This document shows, in pieces, positions 26,309-52,468 of a DNA stretch of 64,000 nucleotides; position 1 is the stretch's first letter, and each line of letters begins with the position of its first letter. Position numbers and translations under genes: made by a program. The notes below the pieces were generated by a model. It worked only from the letters and a program-made list of their open reading frames with translations. It was not told the DNA's origin and searched no databases. The DNA is from Desulfurococcales archaeon (lineage in GTDB: Archaea > Thermoproteota > Thermoprotei_A > Sulfolobales > Desulfurococcaceae): the NCBI GenBank assembly GCA_027022365.1, contig JALVYU010000011.1, forward strand, positions 1 through 64,000, written 5' to 3'.

Positions 26309-27559
26309 TTACCATCCAAGAAACATTGTTGCTGATAACTCTAGCGCTTTTAGAGCAGGCAGGGTCTCGCCAGACAGGAATAGCAATAATGCATTTCCAC
26401 CTGTCGAGACATGCACATGGTCATTGAGATGCTTTGGATCAACCATTGATGCCAAGTGCCCGCCACCTATCAGTACGAAGGCGTTGCTATTCACAGCGGC
26501 ATTGAGTAGTTCCTTTGTGCCTTTCCTGAACTTCTCGTCCTCGATGACTCCTGCTGGTCCGCGCATAACAATTACTTTTGCTTCCTTAATGAAGCCCTTG
26601 TACATATTGATAGTTGCTTCACCAATGTCCTTTATCTTACCCTTGATCCCGGCGACGCTTGCATTCTCTATGGTGCCATCATCTTTTACTATCTTGAAGT
26701 CTATGGGTGTCTCTATAGGTGCTCCCATTAGCAGTATGTGTCTTGCCCTAGGTATTAGCGATAGTATTCCCTTCTCCTCCAGGAACCTCATGTTCTCCTT
26801 ACCTATATTCACTCCCTTAGCGACGAGGAACAGCTGTGCTACGAGTCCTGTGGTTAGGATTCTATCGGCTGCCTTGTTTATTACCAGGTTCTCAATGACA
26901 CGCAGTAAGTCTCTGACCTTGGTTCCTCCCAGTATAAATATCCTCGGGCTCTCCATTGTCTCGAACACGCGTTTCAAAGCCTTGACTTCCTTCTCGAATA
27001 CTGGCCCTGCAACGGATGGCAGTACAAGTGGGAACCCCACTATGCTTGGTTGGCTCCTATGCGCCGTGGCGAACGCATCGTTTACGTATGCCTCGAATAG
27101 CGGTGCTAGTCTCTTTACCATAATTGTCATGCTCTGTTTCTCGGGTGTCGCTTCGAGTATTTCTTCCGAAACCAGTCTCAGATTATCGAGTAGCAGTACT
27201 TCTCCCTGCTTAAGCTTCTTGATTTCCTCCCTCGCAGTGGGACCTATTACGTCTGGTACGAACTTGACATCTAATCCTGTATACTTTGATAATAGCTCGG
27301 CGTGTTTCTCCAGCGTTACGAAGTCTTGTTCCCCCGGTCTCCCCTGGTGGGACGCAGCCACCACGGCTGCATTGTATTGCTCTACGAGCGTTCTGATTGT
27401 CTCGGCATGAACCCTTATCCTGCGGTCATCTAGTATCTTTCCAGTGTCCGGATCAATGGGCACGTTAATGTCTATTCTTAGAAATATCTTCCTCCCTGTT
27501 ATATCAAAATCCTTTAAGGTCGGGATCCTGGGTAATTTTAGGCCGTTCATCCGCATCAC
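26309..27559 (-). CDS. pgk: Phosphoglycerate kinase
   Basis: RIDINVP, SHQGRPG, NDAFATAHRSQPS, GGGHL and STGG. Confidence 0.96.
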   Translation of the reverse strand: MMRMNGLKLPRIPTLKDFDITGRKIFLRIDINVPIDPDTGKILDDRRIRVHAETIRTLVEQYNAAVVAASHQGRPGEQDFVTLEKHAELLSKYTGLDVKFVPDVIGPTAREEIKKLKQGEVLLLDNLRLVSEEILEATPEKQSMTIMVKRLAPLFEAYVNDAFATAHRSQPSIVGFPLVLPSVAGPVFEKEVKALKRVFETMESPRIFILGGTKVRDLLRVIENLVINKAADRILTTGLVAQLFLVAKGVNIGKENMRFLEEKGILSLIPRARHILLMGAPIETPIDFKIVKDDGTIENASVAGIKGKIKDIGEATINMYKGFIKEAKVIVMRGPAGVIEDEKFRKGTKELLNAAVNSNAFVLIGGGHLASMVDPKHLNDHVHVSTGGNALLLFLSGETLPALKALELSATMFLGW

Positions 27560-27836
27560 CTCCTTCTTTTGAAAATGATTTTGAGAAAATTATCTCAATA
27601 CCACTTATTCTAGAATTGAGTACTGAACTTATTAATTTACTTCTTAAAAAATTAAAATAGTTATTTAAAGTTCTATGATGAGACACTTTTTCCGGTCCAG
27701 ATCTGTCTTCATAGTGGGAGAAACCTCCCACAAAAGATTACTATTTAACTCTGTATAGGCTCTCATTAAATTCTGTTGGCATACTGAAACTTTTTCTCTG
27801 AGAAAAGAATAAAAATAAATAAAAATGTTGAGACAA

Positions 27837-29054
27837 TTATGGCTCGTTCTCGAAGTGGATCGCTCTAGTTGGACATACACTGGTACAGAGTCCACAGCCG
27901 TAGCACTTATCTACATTTACGGTTGCTATACGCTTACCTTCCTCGGTAACGATAACTTTGGCCGCACCATAATCACATACCTGTTCACAGAATCCGCACC
28001 CGATACATTTCTTGGCATCGACGACTGGTGGTTTGGCCCATGTTCTCCTAGGCTCTGGGCCGAGATACTTCAGTGCTAGGCCTTTGACATCTAGGATGCT
28101 GTCATAACCATGTCTTCTGAGCCACTGGTCTATCTCCTTGGCTATTCTCTTGAAGATTCCTGGGCCCTCAATAAGGACGGCTGTACATATCTGGACGGCT
28201 GATGCGCCTGCCATGAAGTACTCTATAACATCTGTACCCTTTGTTATTCCGCCTACACCGATTATTGGTAGATTAGTGTTCTTAGCGGCTTCTGCAACCA
28301 CAGCGAGAGCTAGGGGTTTTAGTGCTGGGCCGCTCATCCACCCGTATCCCTTGGGGCCTCCTACAATGGGGAGCCCCGTCTCGATATCAATGTGTAGTGC
28401 TGGGCCAATGGTGTTTGTCGCGACTATTCCGTCAACACCTACTTTCTCGAGCTCTTTAACGAGCTCCGGTATGTTTGGTGTGAATGGGCTGAGCTTGGCT
28501 AAGATCGGTATGTCAACGGCTTCTCTTAGAGCTTTTGCAGCCTCTACTACGGGCCTGTAGTCTTTGCCTATGTAGTGTGTTGAGAACTCTATGGCTTCGG
28601 CGCCCGCTTTCTGTACCTTGGGCCCTAGGAGAGCTAGTTCTTCCGGCTTATAGCCTATACTGACTATGAATGGCACACCCTTCTGCTTAGCGTACTCTCT
28701 GACTATCGGGTATTCTCTCTCAAGATAATGCTCTGCCGGGATATCGCTCCACAGCTCGGCATTGAGTAGTGCATATATGAATCTATAGTTGCCACTGTCC
28801 GCGTTAACAATCCTTATGTCGCCGGGACCATAGGTTTTCAGTATTTGAGCTCTTACCAGTCCCCTATCTACAACACCCATGCTTGGACGCGGTACTATTG
28901 CTGGTTTAACGCTTATGGTCTTGGCGACAACCGCGCCAACACCGTTGTCGATCAGTATCTTCATGGTTTCCGCGTCTCTAGATATAGGACAAGCGGCATT
29001 CATTAATGGGTTCTTTAGCTTTAGACCTGCTATCTCGACTTCAAGGCTGGGCAT
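27837..29054 (-). CDS. DHODH/PreA-like FMN oxidoreductase with C-terminal 2x[4Fe-4S] domain
   Basis: AGLKLKNP, VAKT, KLSP, ATNT, SGPALKP, GVGGI, GASAVQICT; CIGCGFCEQVC and CYGCGLCTSVCP. The usual SCP active-site loop is replaced by STHY. Confidence 0.82.
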   Translation of the reverse strand: MPSLEVEIAGLKLKNPLMNAACPISRDAETMKILIDNGVGAVVAKTISVKPAIVPRPSMGVVDRGLVRAQILKTYGPGDIRIVNADSGNYRFIYALLNAELWSDIPAEHYLEREYPIVREYAKQKGVPFIVSIGYKPEELALLGPKVQKAGAEAIEFSTHYIGKDYRPVVEAAKALREAVDIPILAKLSPFTPNIPELVKELEKVGVDGIVATNTIGPALHIDIETGLPIVGGPKGYGWMSGPALKPLALAVVAEAAKNTNLPIIGVGGITKGTDVIEYFMAGASAVQICTAVLIEGPGIFKRIAKEIDQWLRRHGYDSILDVKGLALKYLGPEPRRTWAKPPVVDAKKCIGCGFCEQVCDYGAAKVIVTEEGKRIATVNVDKCYGCGLCTSVCPTRAIHFENEP

Positions 29055-29303
29055 ACAATATACCCCCATGAGAACGAGTTGCACTATTAAATCATATTCG
29101 TGGTTTCTATATAAGCATCCCTATCAAATGACTACATGTGTGGTAGAAACCATTGGTTCATCTAATGTAAATGTTCAGAATCATGTTTTTAAACCGATTA
29201 GAAGAATATCCCCGGAAATAATATTGGATCCATGAGAATTTCTTATTAATGCACGAGAAAATGGTTTTCAAGATATGTGTTTTTTATAAAAAAGGTTCCT
29301 TAT

Positions 29304-29492
29304 TTAGCCACAGATCGGGTAGTCGTCCGGCACTTTAGCCCTGAAGTACTTACCGGTCTCAGGGTCCTGGAATAGTCCTACCTTAACGCCCTTCCTGCCC
29401 TTTGGGCTAAGCTGCCATACCTTCTTGGGTACTAGCTCTACCTCCTTTCCGCTGGGGGTCTTGACCTTGACTGCCTCGGTGCACGCGACCAT
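29304..29492 (-). CDS. creN7: Crenarchaeal chromatin protein Cren7
   Basis: [53 protein letters not shown] closely matches Cren7; GGTGA RBS before ATG 29492. Confidence 0.95.
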
Positions 29493-29713
29493 TGCTATCA
29501 CCGTACTATACATTAGAGTGTTATGGGTTATTTAACTTTTTCCTATCAGTATATAAAGGTTTAATACTGGACTATTACACTCTGTAAATTTTATGTAAAC
29601 TTTTTAGATTTGTATATTCATTAACATAGAATACCTATATGGATCATTGCATAGATCAGTATAAATATAGTGACATAAAAGAGTTATAAAAAATATAAAA
29701 ATGTATTGTCTAT

Positions 29714-31102
29714 TTATTTTTTGTCAAGAACATCCAGCTGGTACTTGCCCTCATTAAGTAGCCTGTCCCAGAGTCTCTCGACAACTTTGTGGACGTATTC
29801 GAGTGCTTTGGCCTCGTCTATTGTGAGGACTTTCCTGTCCTCCATAATTATTCTGCCATTAACAATTACTGTTTTAACGTCTTTGCCCGTAAACGTGTTG
29901 ACAATGTGACCATATACAGTCTTCTCATTAACAGGTGTTGGCGGTAGTTCTGGCCTAATTATTATGACATCGGCTTTCTTACCCGCTTCCAAGCTTCCGA
30001 GTTCTTTCTCTACACCGAACATTTTAGCGACGTTTATTGTCGCCATCTCAACGATCTCCTGTGGCGTCATGAGCCGTGGGTCGAGATTCCATACTTTGTG
30101 TATAAGGTAAGTTGTCCTCATGTTCTCGAACACATCGAAGATGTATCCATCATTGCCTATGCCGACGTTAATCCCCATCTTCATCATTAACGGTATTCTC
30201 GGTACACCTACTGCATTGAGCATGTTGCTCATGGCATTGTGTGCGACATGTGCTCCGCTTTCCTTTATAAGTTTCAGCTCGTCATCATTGGCGTGGACGA
30301 CATGTACTAGTATAACGTCCGGGCCTAGGAATCCGAGTTTGTGCATCCTCTCTATAGGTCTTATACCGTATCTTTCCATGTTATGATATACGTCTACAAG
30401 TCCTTCCTCCACATGTATTGAGAGCAGTGCACCGTATTTGTTGGCGATCTCACGGGCCATCCTGAAGAGGTCATCAGTCACGGTGAAGCTTGCATGTAAG
30501 TATATTGCGCCTTTCACAAGTTTTGACGGATCATTATTGTTTTTCTTAATGAAGCGCTCATTCTCCTTTACCCCTCTGATCCCCTCCTCAATGCTACGCC
30601 TCTGTGTGGCTTCAAATGTGAGTATTCCTCGTATACCGACCTCATTTACAGCTTTCTCCATGTGGTCGAGGACGCCCTCGATCGCATTAGGACTACTTAT
30701 GTTATCGAAGAACATTGTTGTCCCTGATTTGACGAAGTCGAGAGAACCTATGAGTGCGGCAGCATATGCGTCCTCATAGGTCAGCAGTACGTCCAGTGCC
30801 CACCATATTCTCTGCAGGTTCTGAATGAAGTCGGTGGGCGGCTCTATTTTGGCGAACCAGGGGCTTGCGCGTAGTAGTTCTCCGTAGAAATGAGTATGCG
30901 CACATAGGAATCCAGGCATTACTACTCCTTTCTTTGCATCGATCACTTTCTCAGCATCGTACTTGTCCTTGCCGTCTCCCTTACCTATGCCCACGATCTT
31001 GTCTTCGTCTATGGCGACGTAGCCATCGGGTATTATTCTGCGTTTATCGTCCATTGTTACTATTAGTCCATTGTTTATAAGAATCGAGACCTTCTCCTTC
31101 AT
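29714..31102 (-). CDS. ssnA: SsnA-like metal-dependent amidohydrolase
   Basis: HTHFY, LQRIWWALD, LHASFTV, HVEEG, LVHVVH and SNMLNAVG are SsnA-type features. Confidence 0.78.
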   Translation of the reverse strand: MKEKVSILINNGLIVTMDDKRRIIPDGYVAIDEDKIVGIGKGDGKDKYDAEKVIDAKKGVVMPGFLCAHTHFYGELLRASPWFAKIEPPTDFIQNLQRIWWALDVLLTYEDAYAAALIGSLDFVKSGTTMFFDNISSPNAIEGVLDHMEKAVNEVGIRGILTFEATQRRSIEEGIRGVKENERFIKKNNNDPSKLVKGAIYLHASFTVTDDLFRMAREIANKYGALLSIHVEEGLVDVYHNMERYGIRPIERMHKLGFLGPDVILVHVVHANDDELKLIKESGAHVAHNAMSNMLNAVGVPRIPLMMKMGINVGIGNDGYIFDVFENMRTTYLIHKVWNLDPRLMTPQEIVEMATINVAKMFGVEKELGSLEAGKKADVIIIRPELPPTPVNEKTVYGHIVNTFTGKDVKTVIVNGRIIMEDRKVLTIDEAKALEYVHKVVERLWDRLLNEGKYQLDVLDKK

Positions 31103-31255
31103 GATATCACCTTGCCTAAATGAAATCTTAGCGTGACGAAATTATAATCTTATCATGAAGAATGGCGAGAATGATCGATATTACGATTGACATTATTCCA
31201 TAAATAGTGAGGACTGTAAGGAGAAAGAGAAAAAGAATTGTGGGTTAAGACAATA

Positions 31256-32242
31256 TTACTGGTCGGGTATTATCCTTGTTCCTGCCTTGCCCTTGAGTGC
31301 CTCGTATGCCTGCGATAGATGAGCTATGATTGCCTGTTTACCGCCGTTCTTGATGAATCTTATTGCCGCTAGTACTTTGGGCCCCATGCTTCCAGGCTTG
31401 AAGTGGCCTTCCTTATAGTATTTCTCTGCTTCGCTAACAGTCATTACATCGATCGGCTTCTGCTGTGGTGTTCCATAGTTTAGGTATACTTTCTCAACGT
31501 CAGTAAGTATCATGAAGGTCCCGGCACCGATTGCTGTCGCCAGCCTCTCGCCGGCAAGGTCTTTGTCGATCACGGCTTCTACGCCGTGGAGCCATCCTTT
31601 ATCGTCAAAGTATACTGGGATTCCTCCTCCACCGCTGGCTATAACGATGAATCCTTCGTCGAGAAGCCTCTTTATAGCTTCTATCTCCACGTGTCCCTTG
31701 GGGTCTGGTGAGGGCACTACTCTTCTCCAGCCGCCGCGCGGGTCAGGCTTTACTGTCCAGCCGAATTCTTCTGCGAGCTTCTTAGCTTCTTCCTCATCGT
31801 ACCATGGCCCGATATACTTTGTCGGGTTCTGGAATGCTGGATCGTCTTTCTCAACTATGGTCTGCGTCACAATTGTGACAACTCCCTTGATCTTCCCGTT
31901 GTTGAGTAGTCCTTTCTCTTTGAGCTTGTTGTATAGGCTCTGCTGGATCAGGTATCCAAGCCATCCCTGGCTCATAGCGCCTGCGATGTCAAGAGTCATT
32001 ACATCCAGGTTCTTGAGCTTCTTGCCAGCAAGCATCCACTCTGCGATAATACCTACCTGTGGGCCGTTACCATGTGTGATTGCGACCTTGTAGCCCTCCT
32101 CGAGTATCTTTACGAGAAACTCGGCACTCTTGTAGGCGTTCTTCCAGTAGTTCTCGGGGGTGCCGCGTTCTCCCTTGGTCTGGAACGCGTTGCCACCAAA
32201 TGCGACGACTATGTACTTCTCCTTACGATCCATCTGGTACAC
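31256..32242 (-). CDS. arcC: Carbamate kinase
   Basis: [42 protein letters not shown] and GSMGPK. Confidence 0.96.
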
Positions 32243-32318
32243 CTTCTCGGCGTTTTTGCTAGTATATCTTTTCTTTTCAAGATAATATGGTTAAAAAATC
32301 CTAATGTGGCAGTATAGC

Positions 32319-33098
32319 CTAGATCATAAATCCCGGTAATCCGTCCGGTCTAAATGCTTTCCTAGGCTTTAATCCGTATCTCTTCATAAGATCTACGACG
32401 TGCGGGTAAAGGATAACGTATTCAGGATCTATTGACTCTGGAAGGCTAGGATCTATCGATTTAAGTTTCTCGACAAACCATTTAATGTTCTCAGGCTCTG
32501 AGAAGCTAAGCATTATTGCCGGGTATACCCTCTCGCCGGGCTCGAGACCCGCGTCGACTAGATTTTCGAGGGCTTTGAACTGATAATCGTAAAATTTCTT
32601 CGAAGCACCTGTCAGCCTCTCGAACTCATCGGGTGAAGCGCCTTTAAACGATACTCTTACGATAACCGATTTGTGGATCGCCAGTTTTTCCGCGAACTTC
32701 TTGTCACGGCCTATGAGGAGACCGTTTGTCTCTAGAACAAATAGGTAATCAGTCTCATCGACTATATCAAGTAGTTGTAATAGATGATTTTGTGAAAGCG
32801 TTGGCTCACCACCGCTTAGACGTAGATACTTGTACCCTCTTCTCGATGCAATATTAGTCAATCTATGGAAAACCTGATATGCATTATAGAATCTGCCATC
32901 CTTGTATCCATGGCTGTACCTCCATGACCAGCAGAACTTGCACCTAAGATTACATCCTACAACATCGCCTGTTGCTATACCTCCATACCACTTGCCCCCA
33001 CGAAACCTATAGTACATCCTATACTCCATGCCGTTCCTTACCCGCACAATTTTTCCTCTAACTTTCTCAGCAAGCATGAATGGATCGAATCCTGTCAT
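32319..33098 (-). CDS. Radical SAM protein of unknown function
   Basis: WYGGIATGDVVGCNLRCKFCWS, RLSGGEPT, LETNG and VSFKG. Confidence 0.85.
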   Translation of the reverse strand: MTGFDPFMLAEKVRGKIVRVRNGMEYRMYYRFRGGKWYGGIATGDVVGCNLRCKFCWSWRYSHGYKDGRFYNAYQVFHRLTNIASRRGYKYLRLSGGEPTLSQNHLLQLLDIVDETDYLFVLETNGLLIGRDKKFAEKLAIHKSVIVRVSFKGASPDEFERLTGASKKFYDYQFKALENLVDAGLEPGERVYPAIMLSFSEPENIKWFVEKLKSIDPSLPESIDPEYVILYPHVVDLMKRYGLKPRKAFRPDGLPGFMI

Positions 33099-34042
33099 AA
33101 CTCATTCCTCAGACAAGAACCAGGTTGTTCTAGAATGTGTGAGAATCGTATCAATATTGTCTCTACTGCACTGCTTCTACTCCTGCTTCTTGTCCTGAAC
33201 AGACAATATATGAGCGATTGTATAATACCTGTCAGGCTTCCAAGTTTCCTCTTTGCCGAGGCATAGATACAGCTAGTGCTGTATAGACAAGACCTGCAAT
33301 CCAATCCTGACCTTAAACATTTCTTCTTGTTCGGCACTCTACCGCTAACGCCTATAGTACTAAGGAATTCCATAAAATACCTGTCTACAGGAGCATAACT
33401 GGTTAATCCATATGTATGTAATAGGTATGCATGGACAGTCTTGACCCCGATTCCATCTAGCGAGAGTAGTTCGACGGCTTCTTCTATAGGATCATTTGCT
33501 TTGTCGAGGATCTTATCAAGATGAGCTATAAGTCTATTAAGTAGTTTCACCTGATACGATCCGGAGTCGACACTCCTGTGTTTAATGAATTCTTTCATCC
33601 ATCTCAGTGTATTAATATAGTAATCTGTATTCATACTAAGAACTATTGATGCGATTATGAATTTTTTATCGCCTGGCGACGAAGGAATACTTATTCTCCC
33701 AATACAATCTGGTGTAATATACCCGGATACTTTGTTCATAATACGAGGGTTAAGCCAAGCTCTTTCATAGGATTTCACGCCTAATAATGAAAATATATCC
33801 TCTAAATCACATTCCTTCGGCATTCTGCACATTAGTTCAAGTTTTTCTTTGATGTAATTACACATGAGGCCTTTACAAACACCAGTTGTTTTTGTAAATA
33901 CAAGTCTTCCGTCCTTATAATCCAGTTTGAAAAGCGGGAGCAAATATGAGTGGTAAAAGCTTAAGGCATAATCAATGCCTCTAACAATAATTTTATCGTC
34001 CTCAACTAAAACGGTCATGGCATAATATTTATTTCCTAGCAC
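33095..34042 (-). CDS. HhH-GPD DNA glycosylase-like protein with EndoIII-type Fe-S motif
   Basis: LLSLDGIGVKTV (HhH with Lys), APVD (catalytic Asp) and CLRSGLDCRSCLYSTSC (Cx6Cx2Cx5C). Confidence 0.7.
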   Translation of the reverse strand: MLGNKYYAMTVLVEDDKIIVRGIDYALSFYHSYLLPLFKLDYKDGRLVFTKTTGVCKGLMCNYIKEKLELMCRMPKECDLEDIFSLLGVKSYERAWLNPRIMNKVSGYITPDCIGRISIPSSPGDKKFIIASIVLSMNTDYYINTLRWMKEFIKHRSVDSGSYQVKLLNRLIAHLDKILDKANDPIEEAVELLSLDGIGVKTVHAYLLHTYGLTSYAPVDRYFMEFLSTIGVSGRVPNKKKCLRSGLDCRSCLYSTSCIYASAKRKLGSLTGIIQSLIYCLFRTRSRSRSSAVETILIRFSHILEQPGSCLRNEL

Positions 34043-34059
34043 ATGTTCTCCCCAATGAT

Positions 34060-34090
34060 AAAGAAGAGAAGAAAGTAAAGAAAAAAGAGT
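34060..34090 (-). terminator. Pyrimidine/U-rich archaeal terminator after the carbamoyltransferase gene
   Basis: Minus-strand CTCTTTTTTCTTTACTTTCTTCTCTTCTTT tract about 25 nt after the stop codon. Confidence 0.45.
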
Positions 34091-34115
34091 GTTGGAGTAT
34101 TGGTGGATAAAAGTT

Positions 34116-35186
34116 TTAGGCTTTGCTCCCCATCACCATGGCCATTACGGCCTTCTGGACGTGTAGACGGTTCTCGGCTTCCTCGAAGTAGAGGCTCTTC
34201 TCGTAACTGTCTAGTACTTCGTCTGTTACCTCCTGTCCACGATCTGCTGGTCCACAATGCATGTAGTACGGCTTGCCGGCCTTCTCTAGTCTCTCCATGG
34301 TCACTATCCAGTCCTTGAACTTGGCCTGATACTGCTTTGCGCCCTCCTTGTCTACAGTGCTGTTGAACGGTGGGAAGAAGCCCTTCGGGCTCCATGCCTT
34401 CGGGTATACGAAGGTGGCGCCCTCGAATGCCTCGTCCATATCGTGCGTTATCTTGAACTCTGCGCCCCAGTGCTCGGTGTACTTCTTCACCTTCTCGATC
34501 ACGTCGTCGAGTAGCTCGAAGCCTGGTGGGTGTGCAATGTATACGTCAGCACCTAGCATCGCGGCGATGAGCGCTACGCTCTGGGGTACTGCTAGAGGCT
34601 TTAGTCCTCCGCTATAGGCATAGCTGACAACGAACTTCTTTCCTCTCAGGTCCTTAGGCCAGCCCAGGGCCTCGAGAGCTGCCTGAGCGTCTGCTAGGGC
34701 CTGGAATGGATGGTAGATGTCGTCCTCCATGTTTAGGACTGGCACGCTTGCCCACTTGGCGAACTCCTGTATGATCCTGTGTCCACGGCCGATGATCCAC
34801 TTGGCCGGGTCACCATAGATTCTGATGGCGATTCCATCACCATATCTGCTTAGGACACGGGAGACATCACGGATAGCCTCGGTCTGATAAGGCACCATGT
34901 CTTCGGGTAGTGTGGGCGTGTATACGTCGTGTGGCGATATGAAGATACCCATACCGCCTAGCTGGTAGATTCCTGTTTGGAAGCTGTTCCTTGTTCTAAG
35001 GCTCTTATTGTAGAATATCAGGTATAGAACCTTGCCCGGCAGGTATTTTGTCTCGACTTTTTGATGGAACTTCTCCTTCAAGTCCTTGGCTGCTTCTAGT
35101 ACTTTGAGTATCGTATCGATATCATAGTCTGCATTGGAGAGCCAGTGCTTGCCTTCAAGATAACCTACATACCATGGTTTGCTCAT
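34116..35186 (-). CDS. Knotted carbamoyltransferase, YgeW/AOTCase-like
   Basis: SLRTR, HPFQALAD, YAYS..LKPLAVPQS, VYPKAW, HCGPADRG and EAENRLH; lacks the OTCase SMG motif. Confidence 0.8.
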   Translation of the reverse strand: MSKPWYVGYLEGKHWLSNADYDIDTILKVLEAAKDLKEKFHQKVETKYLPGKVLYLIFYNKSLRTRNSFQTGIYQLGGMGIFISPHDVYTPTLPEDMVPYQTEAIRDVSRVLSRYGDGIAIRIYGDPAKWIIGRGHRIIQEFAKWASVPVLNMEDDIYHPFQALADAQAALEALGWPKDLRGKKFVVSYAYSGGLKPLAVPQSVALIAAMLGADVYIAHPPGFELLDDVIEKVKKYTEHWGAEFKITHDMDEAFEGATFVYPKAWSPKGFFPPFNSTVDKEGAKQYQAKFKDWIVTMERLEKAGKPYYMHCGPADRGQEVTDEVLDSYEKSLYFEEAENRLHVQKAVMAMVMGSKA

Positions 35187-35341
35187 TTTGACTTCCCCAA
35201 CCAGATTTACTGTTCTTGTCTATTGTCTAGTCTTTGCTTAGATATAAATTGTATTTCTCTCCGTACTAGTCTTTGATAATAGGTGTTATTGAAGAATCTA
35301 TATAGCGTATAGAGATAATTTAGGCCCAAGTACCGGAGCCA

Positions 35342-36841
35342 GTGATCGCTATGAGGATTTCACGTCCCGCTAGAAGTATTGTAGGATTATGCCTACATAG
35401 CCCTGGAAACCCGTGCGAGAGAATTGGTCATCCAGAGCACTTGCTCATTCAATTATTCATCGATTACTTGAAGAAAAAAAGAATACCTAAGCAAATAGTC
35501 CTAGCATATTATCCTATAGCCTTTCTAGAAGTATTTGACGAGAAAGGAATATTGGTCGACGCATATACGCTTAAGAAGACAAAGATGCCTCTATGGTCTC
35601 CACCAATAACACTTCTGCTCAAATCTGTCGAGGAGATAGATACCTCATCCACGCATGATTTTATGAGAGGATTGAAGATAGTTAAGAGGCTTGCGACGGA
35701 GATCTATGCAGGAAAATACAGTGATATTGAGTACCAAGAAGTACCCGGCCTCATAACGGGAGGCATTAAAAATACCTTGGAGAATTTGTTCCCCATTGCC
35801 ACGACGACCGGCCTTACAGGCCTAATGCTCGAACATGACGAAGGATATAGGAGCACAAAATACGTTTATATAAGAACTATCACTTCGCTCGAAAACCTAA
35901 TGTCTTTGACTCAGCAGGCTCACTCACTACTATTCAGGAAGTATAAGGAATGGATAACAAATATAACGAGACATTATAACGAACGTTTCGGCGAATTAGA
36001 ACTAAGTCTTGAAGAGACGAGAAAGATTGTTGACTCGAATATCCAGAATTTTAGTATGAAGATGAATAATGAGATGAAACATATCGAAGAAAACTATCAT
36101 TACAAGATAGAAAAATTATTGTTCAGAAGCACTCAGATCCAACGTGAACTAACTGAGATCAAAAAGAAGATCTCTGACCCAACATATGTCGATAAAGAAG
36201 AACTCCTGAGAGAAGAACTGAAAAGGCTGGAGAGAGAAAGAAAGCTCATCCTCAATGAGATAGAGGAGCTAAGACGAGAGGCCGAATCAGAGATCGATCT
36301 TGTTAAGAGGAAGTACTACAAACTCATAACAAAGGAGAGGAACAAGTTACAAGTTCTTGTAAAAGAAAAAAGAAACATAGAGCGTGAGATGAAGGGCAAA
36401 GTCAACCGTATATACATGATGTTCAAGGATGTTGAGAAATGTATAGATTACATATCGTCCAAACTTGCTGGCTTCCGTCGGATCTACGAGGACGCAATGA
36501 TTCATAGCCCTGCTTTAGGCGAATCACTCTATTATCTAAATATTATCATCGCTTCCAACGAAAAGAATACTTGGATTGTCCCCTCCTATGATGTTGTCAT
36601 TGCTAACGGTAGTATCGGTATTTACAGGATCAAGGAGGTTGATAAAATTATCGAAACTGTTAAAAAGGATCTTACGAAAATAGTTCGTGCCGAGAAAGAT
36701 AGGGTACTCATTTATAGGATGAATGACCTTATCGAGCAGAAGAAGGCTAAACAAATTCTTCATCATTTGTTGAAAAAATATGGTCTTAACAAGGATGTCG
36801 AGACAAAAATAGATAGGTTCATAGGGAGGCTCTATGAGTAG
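35342..36841 (+). CDS. Hypothetical protein with a long central coiled coil
   Basis: 499 aa; the central region is E/K/R-rich with heptad periodicity. Confidence 0.6.
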   Translation: MIAMRISRPARSIVGLCLHSPGNPCERIGHPEHLLIQLFIDYLKKKRIPKQIVLAYYPIAFLEVFDEKGILVDAYTLKKTKMPLWSPPITLLLKSVEEIDTSSTHDFMRGLKIVKRLATEIYAGKYSDIEYQEVPGLITGGIKNTLENLFPIATTTGLTGLMLEHDEGYRSTKYVYIRTITSLENLMSLTQQAHSLLFRKYKEWITNITRHYNERFGELELSLEETRKIVDSNIQNFSMKMNNEMKHIEENYHYKIEKLLFRSTQIQRELTEIKKKISDPTYVDKEELLREELKRLERERKLILNEIEELRREAESEIDLVKRKYYKLITKERNKLQVLVKEKRNIEREMKGKVNRIYMMFKDVEKCIDYISSKLAGFRRIYEDAMIHSPALGESLYYLNIIIASNEKNTWIVPSYDVVIANGSIGIYRIKEVDKIIETVKKDLTKIVRAEKDRVLIYRMNDLIEQKKAKQILHHLLKKYGLNKDVETKIDRFIGRLYE

Positions 36842-38027
36842 TGAAGAGGAATGTTTCAACCGTAGAAATGTCTATGCTCTTAGCGCTACAAGCTTATTAA
36901 CCGATATCAGTAGCGAGTCCGTCTATGCAGTTCTTCCTTTCTATATCTTATCGCTTGGATACGGTAGGGATATAATAGGTTTTGTAGAAGGTCTTGGAGG
37001 ATTTCTTGATAGCTTAATGCGGCTTATAAGTGGAAAACTAGCTGATCGTGTTGGGAAGTATAAGTTGCTCGCGACAACAGGTTATTTAATATCATCGGTT
37101 TCTAAGCCTTTCTTCGCTTTTACGAGTTCCTGGCCGATCATAGCACTCATCAGAGCTATTGATCGCATCGGGAAAGGGATCAGGACATCCCCACGCGACG
37201 CACTATTATCTTTTAGCACGTCTCCAAAATACAGAGGTAAAGCCTTTGGACTACATCGGAGCCTAGATACACTGGGTGCCATAATAGGTCCTCTGTTTGC
37301 ATTCTTTATACTGCCGTTCCTAGGATTCGGTGGAGTCTTCATATTAAGCCTCGCCCCTGGGCTATTAGCGGTTCTCCTCATAGCAGCGATTGTCTCAGAG
37401 AAGGAACTATGTCTACGGAGTGAAGAGAGGAAGAAGTCGAGGACGGTGATTGCTGGCAAACTCCCAAGAGAATATTGGTTCTTCCTCTTGTCCGTGGGGA
37501 TGTCTGGATTGTCGGGTTTTGGCCAAGCATTTCTTCTGATCAGATCAGTTGAGCTCGGCTGGAGCAAGGAATACAGTTTATTCTTCCTGATGATCTCTAA
37601 TACTGTGTATGCCTTAACTGCTTATCCGGTAGGGCTTATCAGTGATAAGATGGGGGCTAGAAGAAAGTATCTTTATCCAATAGTTTTCATCCTTACATTC
37701 GTGACGGGAGTATTCCTAGCGATAATACAGTCTCCCTCCATGGCAATAATATCATTCATCATGCTCGGACTATACATGGCATTCAACGACACACTTAGAC
37801 GTATAATCACTGGCCTTCTTCTACCAGTTAGGACACGTGGAACTGGTTATGGATACATGCATGGAATACATGGTTTAGCATATCTGGTCGGGAATACTAT
37901 TCTCGGAAAACTGTATCAGATGTATGGAGCCACCATAGCGTTCACTTACATGTCATTAACGGCACTGATCGGCTTTGTCACGGCGACATTGTTCTTAGTG
38001 GGGTTCTGGCGCTCAATTCTTAACTAG
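36834..38027 (+). CDS. MFS transporter
   Basis: TDISSE, GKLADRVG, DRIGKGIRTSPRDAL and FGLHRSLDTLGA; about 12 TM segments. Confidence 0.9.
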   Translation: MSSEEECFNRRNVYALSATSLLTDISSESVYAVLPFYILSLGYGRDIIGFVEGLGGFLDSLMRLISGKLADRVGKYKLLATTGYLISSVSKPFFAFTSSWPIIALIRAIDRIGKGIRTSPRDALLSFSTSPKYRGKAFGLHRSLDTLGAIIGPLFAFFILPFLGFGGVFILSLAPGLLAVLLIAAIVSEKELCLRSEERKKSRTVIAGKLPREYWFFLLSVGMSGLSGFGQAFLLIRSVELGWSKEYSLFFLMISNTVYALTAYPVGLISDKMGARRKYLYPIVFILTFVTGVFLAIIQSPSMAIISFIMLGLYMAFNDTLRRIITGLLLPVRTRGTGYGYMHGIHGLAYLVGNTILGKLYQMYGATIAFTYMSLTALIGFVTATLFLVGFWRSILN

Positions 38028-38061
38028 ACAGGAGCCATTATTAATTGAATAGGTGGTGCGA

Positions 38062-39006
38062 ATGGTCACGAGCATGAAAGGCAAGCACTTCTTGACGTTA
38101 GCCGATTTCACACGTGAAGAACTAGAATTCATGCTAGACACTGCGAAAATGCTTAAAGAAAGATACTTGGCCGGAGAAAGGATCATACCGATACTAAGGG
38201 GGAGGCACCTAGCCCTCCTCTTTGAAAAACCTAGCACCCGTACAAGAATAAGCTTCGAAACAGCGATGCTTGAACTAGGTGGTGACGCCTTATATCTGAA
38301 CTGGAGAGACCTACAGTTAGGGAGAGGAGAAACGATCGAGGACACTGCGAGAGTCTTGTCGCGATACGTAGACGGCATAATGGCTCGCGTATACGAGCAC
38401 GAAAAACTCGTCAAACTAGCACAGTATAGCCGTGTCCCTGTGATCAACGGTCTTAGCGATCTGCTCCACCCGGCACAGGCATTGACTGATATCTACACTA
38501 TAATGGAGAAGAAAGGCACAGATCTCAGGAAGCTCAAAATAGTGTTCGTTGGTGATGGGAGAGACAACGTGTTACATAGCCTCATGCTGGGAATAGGTAT
38601 CCTGGGCGGGAAGATAATAATAGCTAGTCCCGAGGGATACGAACCCGATCCGAAAGTCGTGAAGATGTTCGAGGAAACAGCAGCACCTAACGGCGGTGAA
38701 TACGAGATCATAAGGGATCCCGTCGAAGCCGTCAAGGGAGCCGATGTCGTATATACTGATGTCTGGGTGAGCATGGGCCAAGAATCGATCAAGGAGAAGA
38801 AAATACGTGATCTGAGCCCATACCAGGTTAACAAGGAGCTCATGAGCTATGCAAAGCCGGATGCCATATTCATGCACTGTCTGCCAGCGCATAGAGGACA
38901 AGAAGTGACCGATGAAGTAATTGATGGCAAATGGAGCGTGGTATGGGATCAGGCAGAGAACAGGAAACATGTACAGAAAGCCATACTCGCGCTCCTAATA
39001 CCTTGA
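38062..39006 (+). CDS. argF: Ornithine carbamoyltransferase
   Basis: STRTRISFE, HPAQALTD, TDVWVSMG, HCLPAHRG and QAENR. Confidence 0.96.
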   Translation: MVTSMKGKHFLTLADFTREELEFMLDTAKMLKERYLAGERIIPILRGRHLALLFEKPSTRTRISFETAMLELGGDALYLNWRDLQLGRGETIEDTARVLSRYVDGIMARVYEHEKLVKLAQYSRVPVINGLSDLLHPAQALTDIYTIMEKKGTDLRKLKIVFVGDGRDNVLHSLMLGIGILGGKIIIASPEGYEPDPKVVKMFEETAAPNGGEYEIIRDPVEAVKGADVVYTDVWVSMGQESIKEKKIRDLSPYQVNKELMSYAKPDAIFMHCLPAHRGQEVTDEVIDGKWSVVWDQAENRKHVQKAILALLIP

Positions 39007-46283: not shown

Positions 46284-47594
46284 TTGGACAACACTATCCT
46301 GATAAAGAATGCAAAATACATAATTACTCCCGACGAAGGAGGCGATAGAACATATATTCTTCGTGATAAAGATATTCTTATAGAGAACGGTGTAATCATA
46401 TGTATTTCTAGTTCATGTAGTGAATTCTCTCCTCGCGGAACCATCAGAATAAATGCAGATAAACACGTGGTAATGCCGGCTATGATTAACTGCCACACGC
46501 ATGCAGCCATGAAAATATTCAAGGGCAGTCTTCCAGACAAGGAGTTTTGGGAATGGCTGGACAAGATCGTCAAAATAGAAGAAAAGGTCATTACTAAGGA
46601 ACTAGTGTATCAGGGATCTAAACTAGCTTCTATTGAAATGTTATTGAATGGAATCATAGGCTTTATTGACATGTACTATTATCCAGACGAGACCGTCAAG
46701 GCCGCATCAGAGTATGGGTTGCTTGTTAGGACAGGGCCATACAGGCCGGATAATGCATATGCGGTACTGTCGATCATAAAAAATTATCCTAACGGATATC
46801 CGCTCATAAACATTCATAGCCTGTACAAGAACGATCCAGAAATTATTGATAAAATGTACGCATTAGCCGAAGAACATGGTTTACCCATCCACATACATGT
46901 CTCCGAGACACGTAGAGAAGTGTATCTTATACGTCGGGAGACGGGGAAATGGCCTATACAGTACATGTATAGTAATGGGTGGTTAAACGAGAATGTTATA
47001 CTTGTGCATCTTAACTGGGTTCTAAGCTCGGAGATTCCTTTGATCAAAGAAAAGAACACTAAGGTCGTGAATTGTCCGCACTCAGCAATGAGGCTCGCAG
47101 AGGCCGGTTTCTGTCCGGTGTACGAAATACTTCGTGAAGGCATTATTCTCGGCGCGGGTACGGATGGATCTAGCGGTGACAGATACAATTTGTTGGACGA
47201 GATCAGAATGATGCTTCTCTTATACCGTCATAATTACTGGGATACAAGGCTTAAACTCCCATATCTCTTCTCTAAGATCACGACCAACTCCTACAAGATC
47301 TTTGGTATCAAGGGTGGCGTGATAAAACCGGGTTGGCCAGCGCATTTGTCCCTGTTCAAAATAGACAATATCCGGCATAGACCCTTAGGTACTAGTAACT
47401 TGTTGGCAAGCCTTATATTGGGTGGCGGTGCTGAAGCCGACTATGTAATGATAAATGGAGGTTTAGTCCTCACTCCTGAGATGAAGACCAAACTTTACAC
47501 TGATGCGGAGATAGTGTCGGATGAGATTGAGGAAAAACTGATGAGGATCATAGATTACTATGAAGGTGTGCCAATTGAACGAAAAACAATATAG
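46284..47594 (+). CDS. Amidohydrolase, MTA/SAH deaminase-like (AtzA/TrzA family)
   Basis: INCHTHAAM, DMYY, HIHVSET, LVH, CPHS and GTDG. Confidence 0.85.
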   Translation: MDNTILIKNAKYIITPDEGGDRTYILRDKDILIENGVIICISSSCSEFSPRGTIRINADKHVVMPAMINCHTHAAMKIFKGSLPDKEFWEWLDKIVKIEEKVITKELVYQGSKLASIEMLLNGIIGFIDMYYYPDETVKAASEYGLLVRTGPYRPDNAYAVLSIIKNYPNGYPLINIHSLYKNDPEIIDKMYALAEEHGLPIHIHVSETRREVYLIRRETGKWPIQYMYSNGWLNENVILVHLNWVLSSEIPLIKEKNTKVVNCPHSAMRLAEAGFCPVYEILREGIILGAGTDGSSGDRYNLLDEIRMMLLLYRHNYWDTRLKLPYLFSKITTNSYKIFGIKGGVIKPGWPAHLSLFKIDNIRHRPLGTSNLLASLILGGGAEADYVMINGGLVLTPEMKTKLYTDAEIVSDEIEEKLMRIIDYYEGVPIERKTI

Positions 47595-49702: not shown

Positions 49703-50491
49703 GTGTATATGGATTTGATGAATTCATCTGTGGAGAGGATACTGAAAGCCTTCGACCTCTCAGTAAAACGTATGCTTTCAATGAAAGGTCTTGACAGCAG
49801 GTTCATAATCCTAGGCACTGTAATGACGTATGTCTGGCTCGCCGTTATGGTGTTTATGAATATCTATGATCCCAACAACATATTCCTACAGCTAATAGGA
49901 ATGATAACAGGTTTCGTGGGTCTTACCGTTATTTTTGCTTTTCAAGTAATCCTCTCCTACAGGATATGCGAACATGTAAAACTCGCGGGATATTATATCT
50001 CCTACGCCAGGGACATCATATCATTGGCCAGTAAGGAAGTCCTACAAGAATATGACGAGTTCCTAGAGGAGGCTTACCTATATAAGTGTCCACATACAGA
50101 GTACAGCCCCTTAGCACTGATCCTTGGTTATCTAGCCATACTATCCATGTACATCTATATCGCGCCTCTCTTCTATGCTGGATACTTGGCCATACTCGGT
50201 ATTTTCGCATACACATTATATGATGCGGTCATAGAGCATCAAGAGATCGAGAGAAAAGTCAATAGGCTTCTCCTCAAGCTTATCGGCATGGATGATGAGA
50301 CAATGTCTTTCCATGAACCGCCAGATTTTAAACCAACATATGTATTGACCACCGTGTTTACTCTAGGGCTACATTTATTCGTCTGGTTATCGTGGATTAA
50401 TTCCTACCTTGATGCCCACATAGTCGACCATAGGAGAATGTATGAATTATTCAAAAAACGGTATGTCAGCATGTACTTGAGCCGGTCATGA
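49703..50491 (+). CDS. Hypothetical integral membrane protein
   Basis: Several TM helices with spaced His residues (EHV, EHQ, AHIVDH). Confidence 0.6.
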   Translation: MYMDLMNSSVERILKAFDLSVKRMLSMKGLDSRFIILGTVMTYVWLAVMVFMNIYDPNNIFLQLIGMITGFVGLTVIFAFQVILSYRICEHVKLAGYYISYARDIISLASKEVLQEYDEFLEEAYLYKCPHTEYSPLALILGYLAILSMYIYIAPLFYAGYLAILGIFAYTLYDAVIEHQEIERKVNRLLLKLIGMDDETMSFHEPPDFKPTYVLTTVFTLGLHLFVWLSWINSYLDAHIVDHRRMYELFKKRYVSMYLSRS

Positions 50492-52468
50492 AGCCTTAAT
50501 TGTCCCAATATCATCAGGGATCTTATAGCCGGGGAGCAGCGAAGCGATCTTCTTAATACGTTCTTTGTCACGAATATATTCTATGAAGGCCTTCACATAC
50601 TCCTTGTCTAACCTATTCTTGTGTATTAGGAAGTCGTATTCCTCCCACGCCAATGGTATGAAATCTAATCCGTAGAGGTAGGCTGCAGCCTCTATCGCTA
50701 TGCCTGCATCTGCTCTTCCATGCTTTACTGCGGCGGCGACAGCCGTGTGTGTTTTCACCTCATAGGTGTAGCCGTTGATCATCTTTTTAACATCGTCAAA
50801 ACTCAACCCTTTCTTCTCAGCTACTCTGTGGAGAAGGATATCCAGGAGAACTCTGGCGCCTGCCCCCCTTGTCCTGTTGACTATTCTGATATCATTTCTT
50901 AGGAAATCCTCTATGCTGTGTATGTTTTTCGGATTGCCTTCCTGGACGACTATACCTATCTTTCTATCATATCCTCTAATGATGACTGCTTTACCCTTCA
51001 AACCATATTTGTCTAGGAACGGTGTATTGTATTTCCCTGTTTCCTTATCGAGAAGATGTGTGGGCGCTATATCGGCCTCACCTCTGATAACGGCTTTCCA
51101 ACCTCCCGTGCTCCCCGTCACGATCACTCTAGAAATACTTCTTAATCCTGATTCGGCGAGAATACGGTGGATCAACATGTCGTTGCTACCTATAATGTTT
51201 AGTTTACTGAATCCTCTCGTCTCATCGAATAACTCCACAGTAACTTCTTCATCTTCTATCAGTAGATCTCTATCTTCAGGTAAGACCACGTATCCATCAC
51301 TATTGTATAGAGGCGATATCGCACCGCTCCTCATAGAGACGGGGTAGGCCGTTAATCCTTTCTCTGACTCGACGAGTGCAACGGGCAGTAGCCATGTCTT
51401 GCCTAGGGGTTTCTTGACCCTATAGGGAAGCCTAGCCTTTAGCCTGTATGTTCTTGTCCTCTTTAAGCCAAGCATAGACGCCACTATGGGCCTGACTATC
51501 ACGTTGAATATCATAAAGCATGACAAAGGAAACCCGGGAAGACCGAACAATAATTTATTCTTGGCGACAGCAACAACTGTTGGTTTTCCGGGCTTTACCT
51601 TGAGGCCATGTATAATTATTCCAGGCTCACCCATGTTCTCGAACACCCTATAAACCAGGTCTCCCACCCCAGCGCTTGTTCCCCCACTGGTTATGACTAT
51701 ATCTGCCCATCTCAGCGCGTCATCAATCGCATCGTATACTTCATCGTAGTCGTCGGGGAGATGGCCCATGAACCTTGCGTCCGCCCCTATTTGTTTGAGT
51801 CCTGATGTGATGAGCTGGCCGTTAACATCATAGACTTTTCCCGGGCTTAGCTTCTTCCAGGGCTCTATGACCTCGTCACCGGTCGAGAAAACCGCTATCT
51901 TTGGGGGGATGTAGGTCTTTATCCTGGTTATTCCCAGACCTGCGAGTAAACCTATCTCTCTGAATCCTAGTCTTGTGCCCGCCTCGAGGACGAGGTCTCC
52001 GAACGATATATCGTTTCCTGTTGAAGAGATGTTTTCTCCAGGTACGACGCTCCTATATATCTCGACCTCATCGTTAAGCCTACGCGTGTACTCGACCATG
52101 ACAACAGCGTCTGCCCCTCGCGGGATCATCGCGCCCGTCGCTATCTCAGCCGTTTCTCTTGGACCTATGCTTATATCGGGGTGTTGGCCAGGCTTAACTA
52201 CACCTACTATTTTCAAGCGCATTGGATGAAGATCGTCCGCCCCTGCAAGATCCTCGGATCGCACCGCGTACCCGTCGACTAGACTTCTGTCAAAAGGAGG
52301 GTGATCGATGGGTGAATATATGTCTTCGGCCAATACTCTTCCTAGAGCCTCCGTTATATTTACCTCCTCTATACCGAGCGGTTTGAGCGGATAGTATCGC
52401 TCTATAATCTTCATGGCATCATTGAGAGACACTAGTTTATGGAAAATCCTTCTCTCCGGCACTTCCAA
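50486..52468 (-). CDS. moeA: Molybdopterin molybdotransferase MoeA fused to a LysR/PBP-type substrate-binding domain
   Basis: PPFDRSLVDGYA, TGDE, SGGTS, KPGKP and LPGFP; C-terminal GSND, NRTRGAG and THTAVA. Confidence 0.93.
   Translation of the reverse strand: MEVPERRIFHKLVSLNDAMKIIERYYPLKPLGIEEVNITEALGRVLAEDIYSPIDHPPFDRSLVDGYAVRSEDLAGADDLHPMRLKIVGVVKPGQHPDISIGPRETAEIATGAMIPRGADAVVMVEYTRRLNDEVEIYRSVVPGENISSTGNDISFGDLVLEAGTRLGFREIGLLAGLGITRIKTYIPPKIAVFSTGDEVIEPWKKLSPGKVYDVNGQLITSGLKQIGADARFMGHLPDDYDEVYDAIDDALRWADIVITSGGTSAGVGDLVYRVFENMGEPGIIIHGLKVKPGKPTVVAVAKNKLLFGLPGFPLSCFMIFNVIVRPIVASMLGLKRTRTYRLKARLPYRVKKPLGKTWLLPVALVESEKGLTAYPVSMRSGAISPLYNSDGYVVLPEDRDLLIEDEEVTVELFDETRGFSKLNIIGSNDMLIHRILAESGLRSISRVIVTGSTGGWKAVIRGEADIAPTHLLDKETGKYNTPFLDKYGLKGKAVIIRGYDRKIGIVVQEGNPKNIHSIEDFLRNDIRIVNRTRGAGARVLLDILLHRVAEKKGLSFDDVKKMINGYTYEVKTHTAVAAAVKHGRADAGIAIEAAAYLYGLDFIPLAWEEYDFLIHKNRLDKEYVKAFIEYIRDKERIKKIASLLPGYKIPDDIGTIKAS

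Follow-up and report, generated by a model that had tools for sequence, protein, structure and literature searches.

Does a hyperthermophilic archaeon ferment purines by the reductive route described for gut bacteria? The question is raised by four genes within positions 27837-35186 of a 64,000-nucleotide stretch, hereafter the window (positions 1 to 64,000 of contig JALVYU010000011.1, here C11, from the Desulfurococcales archaeon assembly GCA_027022365.1). They encode a flavin mononucleotide (FMN) and iron-sulfur reductase (RED), an SsnA-like amidohydrolase, a carbamate kinase (CK), and a carbamoyltransferase (CT1). From homology, gene neighborhood, and co-occurrence, we consider it likely that they form the core of an archaeal version of reductive 2,8-dioxopurine degradation.

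27837-29084, minus strand: RED, FMN/2x[4Fe-4S] reductase, 415 aa; DHO_dh domain followed by a C-terminal 2x[4Fe-4S] region
29714-31102, minus strand: SsnA-like amidohydrolase, 462 aa; Amidohydro_1
31256-32242, minus strand: CK, carbamate kinase; TIGR00746
34116-35186, minus strand: CT1, carbamoyltransferase, 356 aa; OTCace_N and OTCace

It was not until 2025 that the anaerobic purine pathway was solved, and then for gut bacteria alone. As outlined in PMC12507026, Escherichia coli XdhD reduces urate to 2,8-dioxopurine, YgfK and SsnA carry this to ureidomethylhydantoin, and HyuA produces diureidopropionate; YgeW then cleaves a ureido group with phosphate, and YgeY and YgeX complete the pathway. 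The same source describes two replacements for YgfK, namely UacX in Clostridioides difficile, a PydA-like FMN enzyme without the flavin adenine dinucleotide (FAD) domain, and a putative F420 enzyme in Chloroflexota. YgeW and YqeA together make ATP, according to bioRxiv 2025.04.24.650524. A DHODase/DPD-like "X1" dehydrogenase clade beside hyuA, ygeW, ygeY, ssnA, xdh, and yqeA was reported in 2013 (PMC4016543). Our literature search found no archaeal version described: the word "archaea" is absent from the main texts of PMC12507026 and bioRxiv 2025.04.24.650524, supplements apart, and the "dioxopurine" papers listed since 2025 include nothing on archaea by title or listed abstract, most being about the gut or uric acid. 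What would be new here is an archaeal variant of a known bacterial pathway.

Further candidates for the pathway were found in the window and on other contigs of the genome (1.74 Mb, 99.97% complete), as follows.

Window 1-810, plus strand: adenine deaminase, C-terminal half, cut by the contig end; Adenine_deam_C, 212 bits
Contig C26:1267-2670: TRZ/ATZ-type deaminase, 467 aa, beyond the join described below
Contig C26:2826-3899: CT2, a second carbamoyltransferase, 36% identical to CT1
Contig C26:448346-449542: YgeY-family M20 hydrolase; NF009555, 343.8 bits, above the cut-off of 321
Contig C30:47471-51234: xanthine dehydrogenase (XDH) operon with FAD, 2Fe-2S, and Mo subunits
Contig C30: YqeB-like gene
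Contig C31:258038-259321: ThrC-family pyridoxal phosphate (PLP) enzyme; NF006050, 342 bits, above the cut-off of 303
Contig C38:2299-3651: cyclic (hydantoinase-like) amidohydrolase, hereafter C38-type

In the window, the four genes are spread-out members of a module that elsewhere in the Desulfurococcales is compact (CT2-CT1-CK-SsnA-reductase-ThrC-like). In another genome of this order (L010), the ThrC-like, RED, SsnA, CK, CT1, and CT2 genes are contiguous and codirectional, and eight further Desulfurococcales loci have the same order, whole or cut by a contig end. The eight belong to a scan with an SsnA alignment that covered the best 80 of at least 595 relatives, 67 of them archaeal and 13 bacterial. 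Represented among the archaeal loci are Desulfurococcales (with Thermogladius, Thermosphaera, and Zestosphaera among them), Caldarchaeales, Bathyarchaeia, Hadarchaeales, and Thor-, Heimdall-, Hermod-, and Hodarchaeota. The order in Caldarchaeales (L009, L035, L037, and L090) is adenine deaminase, F420-type LLM reductase, SsnA, XDH (FAD, FeS, and Mo subunits), CT2, CK, ThrC-like, V4R, CysK-like, and CT1, and that in Asgard loci (L071) is RED, SsnA, deaminase, CT1, CT2, and ThrC-like. A C38-type amidohydrolase adjoins SsnA in Bathyarchaeia and Hadarchaeales loci.

A ring reductase lies within 10 kb of SsnA in 32 of the 67 archaeal loci (RED in 23, LLM in 9, and YgfK-like in 1) and in 11 of the 13 bacterial ones, many loci being short contigs. 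RED homologues account for four of the bacterial loci; in four Chloroflexota loci, homologues with 40-43% identity adjoin SsnA. Within the same distance, the archaeal loci contain CT1 or CT2 (20 loci), ThrC-like (16), CK (15), the C38-type amidohydrolase (14), the XDH Mo subunit (9), and adenine deaminase (7). No reference family occurs near SsnA in 19 of the 67, 9 of which are loci shorter than 8 kb. Three Actinomycetota-like bacterial loci combine SsnA, LLM, XDH, CT1-like and ornithine carbamoyltransferase (OTC)-like transferases, and CysK-like; two of them also contain CK and a ThrC-like gene. In two members of the archaeon's own family, the YgeY-like, ThrC-like, CysK-like, RED, and SsnA genes are adjacent or nearly so; by this order, the ThrC-like gene occupies the place of bacterial ygeX, beside ygeY.

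The genes are also gained and lost together. Among 401 genomes of the phylum, with identity cut-offs set after a gap in the values had been seen, a CT1 orthologue (at least 63% identity) is present in 40 and an SsnA orthologue (at least 46%) in 37, all within the 40; the three genomes with CT1 only are 83-93% complete. Within the family, CT1, SsnA, and the XDH orthologue occur together in the same 14 of 16 genomes, and none of them occurs in the other two, both 99% complete. A family sample of one genome per genus (n = 21) yielded CK in 20, ThrC-like and the C38-type amidohydrolase in 19 each, CT1 and RED in 18 each, SsnA in 17, CysK-like in 16, and YgeY-like in 9. Two of these 21 genomes (99% and 94% complete) lack all but CK and an OTC, and the other misses fall in genomes that are 77% and 83% complete. 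Since related genomes are not independent, the counts amount to about five gains or losses rather than 40.

The top NCBIfam model for the amidohydrolase is SsnA (NF005540) at 404 bits, and the next family scores about 120 bits lower (285 bits). The best match of E. coli SsnA in the genome is 29759-31018, with 33% identity and 201 bits, against 97 bits for a paralogue. Residues H69, H71, H230, E233, H267, and D318 (the HxH, His, Glu, and Asp columns of alignment A1) are invariant, and the metal ligands are presumably among them.

RED matches PF01180 DHO_dh (127 bits) and Fer4 domains, and is the sole DHO_dh gene of the genome. Its layout, a DHO_dh FMN domain and a C-terminal 2x[4Fe-4S] region without an FAD/NAD(P)H domain, is that of the UacX/PydAc type. 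No PreT-like gene adjoins the module in the archaeal clusters, except at one locus with a 25%-identity match. By analogy with clostridial UacX, RED is probably a stand-alone, ferredoxin-driven reductase of the UacX/PreA/PydA type; its true start probably lies about 10 codons inside the open reading frame (ORF). The original prediction had proposed that a small stand-alone reductase takes the place of YgfK. This is supported but is not new as such, UacX of C. difficile having already been described (PMC12507026).

CT1 contains the SxRTR, HPxQ, and HxxP motifs and a proline-rich loop, GGLKPLAVPQS, corresponding to GKPLSVPQG in YgeW. Its 80's and 120's loops are extended as in AOTCase (N-acetylornithine carbamoyltransferase), and the 120's loop aligns ungapped; CT2 has the long 120's loop and lacks the prolines. 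A proline-rich loop and an extended 120's loop are the criteria given in PMC4581275 for knotted carbamoyltransferases (AOTCase, SOTCase, and YTCase). The YgeW-specific insertions and C-terminal tail are gaps in both CT1 and CT2, and CT1 has 356 aa versus 396 aa in YgeW. The best NCBIfam model for CT1 is N-acetylornithine carbamoyltransferase (NF003384, 246.5 bits versus a cut-off of 288), and the YgeW models score 139.9 bits versus 453 (NF005538) and 139.2 versus 500 (TIGR03316). AOTCase is the closest solved sequence (34% identity) and also the closest structure to the AlphaFold model of CT1 (pLDDT, 94.9): AOTCase 3kzk aligns with template modeling (TM) scores of 0.87/0.93 and a root mean square deviation (rmsd) of 2.3 Å, versus a TM score of 0.81 and an rmsd of 3.2 Å for the best OTC. 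AOTCase residues E144 and K252, described in PMC4581275 as carboxylate anchors in knotted transferases, are conserved as E154 and K263, and E92 and K302, which are mutated in Protein Data Bank (PDB) entries, correspond to T102 and E319.

A transferase tree was built from 63 ORFs of the collected loci, including duplicates of two genomes and without AOTCase, SOTCase, or PTCase references. CT1 and CT2 form clades of 28 archaeal rows (SH-aLRT support, 96) and 21 archaeal rows (support, 99), respectively, both apart from the archaeal OTCs. The long branch of E. coli YgeW groups with three bacterial CT1-like rows on the CT1 side. Judged from sequence, CT1 is neither YgeW nor AOTCase by those families' own criteria. 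Its loops, conserved carboxylate anchors, and AOTCase-like model predict a knotted-group enzyme, likely acting on an N-carbamoyl amino acid. Of the earlier description of CT1 as a knotted, YgeW-like transferase, the knotted-group features thus stand; it is no YgeW orthologue by NCBIfam, and its nearest relative in sequence and predicted fold is AOTCase. A sister clade of carbamoyltransferases was observed in another archaeal family (G136; L021:6540-16505, also L020), where CK, the transferase, a dihydropyrimidinase (TIGR02033, 540 bits in L021), PreA, PreT, a HAD hydrolase, and a class III aminotransferase occur together. This cluster looks like a reductive pyrimidine pathway with a carbamoyltransferase in place of beta-ureidopropionase and a possible ATP yield.

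The adenine deaminase and CT2 can be placed relative to the four genes. Reverse-complemented, the beginning of contig C26 shares an exact 127-nt overlap with the start of the window. When a Caldarchaeales adenine deaminase is aligned, its residues 7-365 match C26:1114-11 and its residues 329-595 match window positions 7-804. Through this overlap, which the reading frame crosses, the two contigs join inside the adenine deaminase gene. The predicted distance from CT2 to RED is then 30.5 kb, and a same-genus genome has both on one contig, 30.6 kb apart.

The C38-type amidohydrolase scores 266 bits versus 393 for TIGR02033 and is 27% identical to HyuA; in other genomes, its orthologues are neighbors of XDH or SsnA. 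A CysK-like gene and a type III RuBisCO gene stand at opposite ends of the XDH operon (C30:46098-53000). Upstream of it are a cytidine deaminase, a PfkB kinase, and a DeoC-like aldolase, in what looks like a nucleoside-catabolism neighborhood. Several family genomes (G373 C10, G184 C20, and G283 C66) have a second XDH paralogue (45-48% identity) beside a second cyclic amidohydrolase paralogue; this genome has one of each only. The YgeY-family gene lies between a signal recognition particle (SRP) RNA (RF01857, 125 bits) and a 107-nt tRNA match, probably with an intron (C26:448027-449672). Its true start is further downstream, as the long ORF start overlaps the SRP RNA.

The fate of carbamoyl phosphate bears on the direction of the transferases. 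CK scores 403.2 bits with TIGR00746, above the cut-off of 358.25, and is 43% identical to E. coli YqeA. A canonical OTC and a transporter of the major facilitator superfamily (MFS) are encoded nearby.

36834-38027: MFS transporter gene, adjoining OTC
38053-39006, plus strand: canonical OTC; NF001986, 434 bits, above the cut-off of 306

OTC and CK are retained in two family members that lack the purine module, and the OTC probably shares CK while standing outside that module. Searches of the 99.97% complete genome did not find PyrB, CarB, a second DHO_dh gene (PyrD), PyrF, or ArgG, nor arginine deiminase or agmatine deiminase; its sole OMPdecase-family gene is a hexulose-phosphate synthase. Since the genes for pyrimidine and arginine synthesis were not found, carbamoyl phosphate has no biosynthetic sink that we found, and the simplest reading is that the three carbamoyltransferases and CK work in the direction of carbamoyl phosphate and ATP. 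With PyrB, PyrD, and PyrF missing, the C38-type amidohydrolase cannot serve pyrimidine synthesis. A noncanonical pyrimidine biosynthesis using CK, a carbamoyltransferase, the C38-type amidohydrolase, and RED was ruled out because the only OMPdecase-family gene is the hexulose-phosphate synthase. Classic arginine or agmatine fermentation was likewise ruled out for CT1, neither deiminase having been found. As a separate observation, the OTC gene lies beside the MFS gene in a genome where ArgG, arginine deiminase, and CarB were not found, and its product may be a catabolic OTC of the citrulline type that supplies this CK.

The ATP-yielding catabolism of a purine-type ring that had been proposed for the locus is thus supported by synteny, by phyletic co-occurrence, and by the lack of carbamoyl-phosphate sinks. 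The original prediction also allowed that the remaining pathway genes might be absent and the enzymes act in arginine, agmatine, or pyrimidine metabolism. This refutation fails: the genome has an XDH-family enzyme, a cyclic amidohydrolase, and a YgeY-family hydrolase, and neither deiminase was found in it. The gene for diaminopropionate ammonia-lyase (YgeX) was not found.

The proposed pathway would run as follows. Adenine deaminase and the second deaminase would supply oxopurines to the three-subunit XDH-family enzyme. The FMN/[4Fe-4S] reductase, probably ferredoxin driven, would reduce the dioxopurine ring, and SsnA would pull this reaction by hydrolysis of the pyrimidine ring. The C38-type cyclic amidohydrolase would open the remaining hydantoin ring to give 2,3-diureidopropionate. 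CT1 and CT2 would cleave the ureido groups with phosphate, the YgeY-family hydrolase being a possible alternative for one group, and CK would use each carbamoyl phosphate to make ATP, for a maximum of two per purine. Finally, the ThrC-family PLP enzyme, in some lineages also the CysK-like one, would turn the diaminopropionate-type product into pyruvate and ammonia, replacing YgeX. Homology and strong linkage point to the ring reduction and opening, ureido cleavage, and ATP formation; linkage and co-loss suggest the supply of oxopurines and the opening of the hydantoin ring. The last step is the weakest, as the ThrC-like protein looks like a true threonine synthase by sequence.

Several results weigh against this pathway. 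SsnA falls below both curated cut-offs (404 versus 444 bits for NF005540 and 387.2 versus 455.5 for TIGR03314), and with only 33% identity to E. coli SsnA, its substrate could be another N-heterocycle. The best models for RED, PreA and dihydropyrimidine dehydrogenase (DPD), are pyrimidine enzymes, and CT1 and CT2 pass no curated carbamoyltransferase model. The best XDH models, PucD (531 bits; cut-off, 784) and XdhA (509 bits), are both below their cut-offs, and the family includes aldehyde oxidoreductases too. CK is not module specific, since it occurs with OTC alone in module-less family members. The ThrC-like protein passes the curated threonine synthase model, its closest solved relatives are true threonine synthases, and it may simply be a threonine synthase. 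The best TIGR01747 match for YgeX reached 56 bits versus a cut-off of 274, and an E. coli YgeX query returned only a 25%-identity fragment. No NCS2 nucleobase permease was found in the genome with E. coli XanQ, GhxQ, and UacT queries. The pathway genes are spread over five contigs, two of which join, and are interrupted by unrelated genes. A search for a motif shared by the upstream regions of ten pathway genes, based on exact k-mer counts (k, 7-10) with 396 other upstream regions as background, found none; a single weak 7-mer was the most it returned.

These points leave room for a different substrate handled by the same chemistry, such as damaged or modified purines, pterins, hydantoins, or allantoin-derived ureides, which we regard as unlikely. 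Such a substrate would agree with specific family scores that all lie below the curated cut-offs and with archaeal proteins that, CK (43%) excepted, are only 27-33% identical to the E. coli enzymes, and it has a precedent in the Rubrobacter ureidoglycine carbamoyltransferase and CK of allantoate breakdown (PMC4016543). It fits less well with the fact that, in several lineages, the module is physically linked to adenine deaminase, a guanine-deaminase-like amidohydrolase, and XDH, or with the pairing of SsnA and an adjacent ring reductase, which is the signature of the dioxopurine route in the description of PMC12507026.

Quite unlikely, in our estimate, is the reductive breakdown of uracil or thymine, with RED as a PydA-type dihydropyrimidine dehydrogenase, the amidohydrolase opening the ring, and a carbamoyltransferase phosphorolysing beta-ureidopropionate to yield ATP. 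PreA is indeed the best NCBIfam model for RED (NF006183, 197.6 bits versus a cut-off of 335), and among solved chains the nearest to it is pig DPD's FMN domain. The XDH operon has a cytidine deaminase gene 3 kb away, and the sister carbamoyltransferase clade of the other archaeal family sits in the cluster with PreT, PreA, dihydropyrimidinase, and aminotransferase genes, CK nearby (L021). However, the amidohydrolase of our locus is of the SsnA type and is no dihydropyrimidinase, neither a PreT partner nor a beta-alanine aminotransferase stands beside the module, and related clusters contain adenine deaminase and XDH subunits. Two carbamoyltransferases and a PLP enzyme of beta-eliminating type would also suit a diureido C3 acid better than beta-alanine.

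A biosynthetic reading, in which CK acts as a carbamoyl-phosphate synthetase feeding OTC and the two odd transferases, is very improbable. Anabolic CK of this kind has reportedly been proposed for Pyrococcus, CarB was not found, and the canonical OTC is only 3 kb away; yet ArgG, PyrB, PyrD, and PyrF were not found either in this 99.97% complete genome, and no role would be left for SsnA, RED, XDH, and adenine deaminase. That the four genes are neighbors by chance with unrelated functions is hardly credible, although Cren7, a radical-SAM gene, and an ORF without family match intervene and each module gene is followed by a T-rich terminator-like tract and preceded by a TATA-like sequence of its own, because in other orders and phyla these genes lie side by side and they are gained and lost together.

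The intervening genes and other features of the window are listed here.

29304-29513, minus strand: Cren7 chromatin protein gene, between SsnA and RED; PF11520, 119 bits
32319-33098, minus strand: radical-SAM protein, 259 aa
33095-34042, minus strand: 315-aa ORF without any family match
46284-47594: TRZ/ATZ-type amidohydrolase
50486-52468: MoeA

The original prediction named four same-strand genes in the interval. All four are in place on the minus strand, but seven minus-strand ORFs fill 27837-35186, the other three (Cren7, radical-SAM, and 315-aa ORF) being unrelated to the module. An adenine deaminase, a second deaminase-like enzyme, and MoeA had been reported elsewhere in the window, and all three are there, the first only as its C-terminal half and the second as a TRZ/ATZ-type amidohydrolase. 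The T-rich tracts noted 3' of each module gene are confirmed, with T fractions of 0.60, 0.53, 0.50, and 0.42 in the 40 nt after the stops (mean, 0.275; standard deviation, 0.085; 40-nt windows on the minus strand). A 77.6-kb contig from another study's run spans window positions 27600-35400 with 40 differing letters and 1 gap; because this contig covers the whole stretch, the gene order is real and no assembly artifact. None of the 17 sequencing runs listed for this DNA is an RNA run. An Rfam scan of window positions 27000-36000 gave no family at gathering score.

The radical-SAM gene overlaps the 315-aa ORF by 4 nt, and the latter contains a helix-hairpin-helix-like GIGxKT stretch. The same arrangement, with the pair flanked by CK and CT1, recurs in two further family genomes (L013 and L015). 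A SpeA-type, bacterial-like arginine decarboxylase homologue, unusual in a crenarchaeon, was observed at window positions 57728-59518 on the minus strand (318 bits versus a cut-off of 369).

CT1 and CK are GC-richer than the window, as had been observed (0.525 and 0.510 versus 0.443). In a post hoc ranking of GC content at third codon positions (GC3) among 434 ORFs of five contigs, CT1 is at the 96th percentile, ThrC-like the 94th, CysK-like the 92nd, the C38-type amidohydrolase the 90th, the XDH Mo subunit the 85th, CK the 84th, CT2 the 79th, SsnA the 60th, RED the 45th, YgeY-like the 8th, and the 315-aa ORF the 1st. Expression level or a shared origin may lie behind this ranking. GC-richness was rejected as evidence of recent transfer: it is indistinguishable from codon bias, and Cren7 has the highest GC3 of the interval (0.686).

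A wider reading of the dioxopurine pathway is possible, and we offer it tentatively and with some doubt. Desulfurococcales, Caldarchaeales, Bathyarchaeia, Hadarchaeales, and Asgard archaea may ferment purine bases by a dioxopurine route of their own, in which CT1 and CT2 phosphorolyse both ureido groups for two ATP per purine and an enzyme of the threonine synthase family was recruited to act last, as a diaminopropionate or ureidoalanine lyase. For hyperthermophiles, such a route might handle the bases as a counterpart to the nucleoside ribose pathway linked to RuBisCO; in this genome, the type III RuBisCO gene is beside the XDH operon. If true, the pathway would be an extra source of substrate-level ATP and of nitrogen for peptide- and sugar-fermenting hyperthermophiles. 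Functions would follow for a reductase, for an amidohydrolase, and for two widespread "ornithine carbamoyltransferase-like" clades, and a new activity would be predicted for a threonine synthase paralogue. Carbamoyl phosphate is heat-labile, and the pathway raises the question of how it is handled at vent temperatures.

Among known systems, the clostridial variant (C. difficile XdhD, UacX, SsnA, HyuA, UacY, YgeY, and YgeX, as given in PMC12507026) resembles the archaeal one in having a small FMN/Fe-S PydA-like reductase without an FAD domain beside SsnA. Further likenesses are an electron donor that is likely of low potential, an enzyme of the XDH family, and the use of amidohydrolases to open the rings. 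C. difficile, however, hydrolyses its ureido groups with UacY and YgeY and without CK, according to the same source, whereas the archaeon has two carbamoyltransferases and CK; the archaeal XDH has a separate FAD subunit, and YgeX was not found. The E. coli cluster (xdhD-ygfM, ygfK, ssnA, hyuA, ygeW, yqeA, ygeY, and ygeX) shares with the archaeon SsnA, CK, a knotted-group carbamoyltransferase, a YgeY-family hydrolase, and ATP from carbamoyl phosphate. It differs in that the archaeon has RED for YgfK and CT1 and CT2 for YgeW, that YgeX and the NCS2 permease were not found, and that the archaeal genes are dispersed. The F420-type LLM reductase is beside SsnA in Caldarchaeales, with the DHO_dh/Fe-S reductase instead in this genome and other Desulfurococcales. 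AOTCase of Xanthomonas (PDB 3kzk) is like CT1 in its extended loops and carboxylate anchors and is closest to it in sequence and fold; it differs in that E92 and K302 are replaced in CT1, for which no arginine pathway was found and the gene context is catabolic. The arginine deiminase pathway, with catabolic OTC and CK, and the Rubrobacter ureidoglycine carbamoyltransferase with CK (described in PMC4016543) use other substrates and other transferase clades, and arginine deiminase was not found here; what they have in common with the proposed archaeal pathway is ureido phosphorolysis followed by substrate-level ATP formation.

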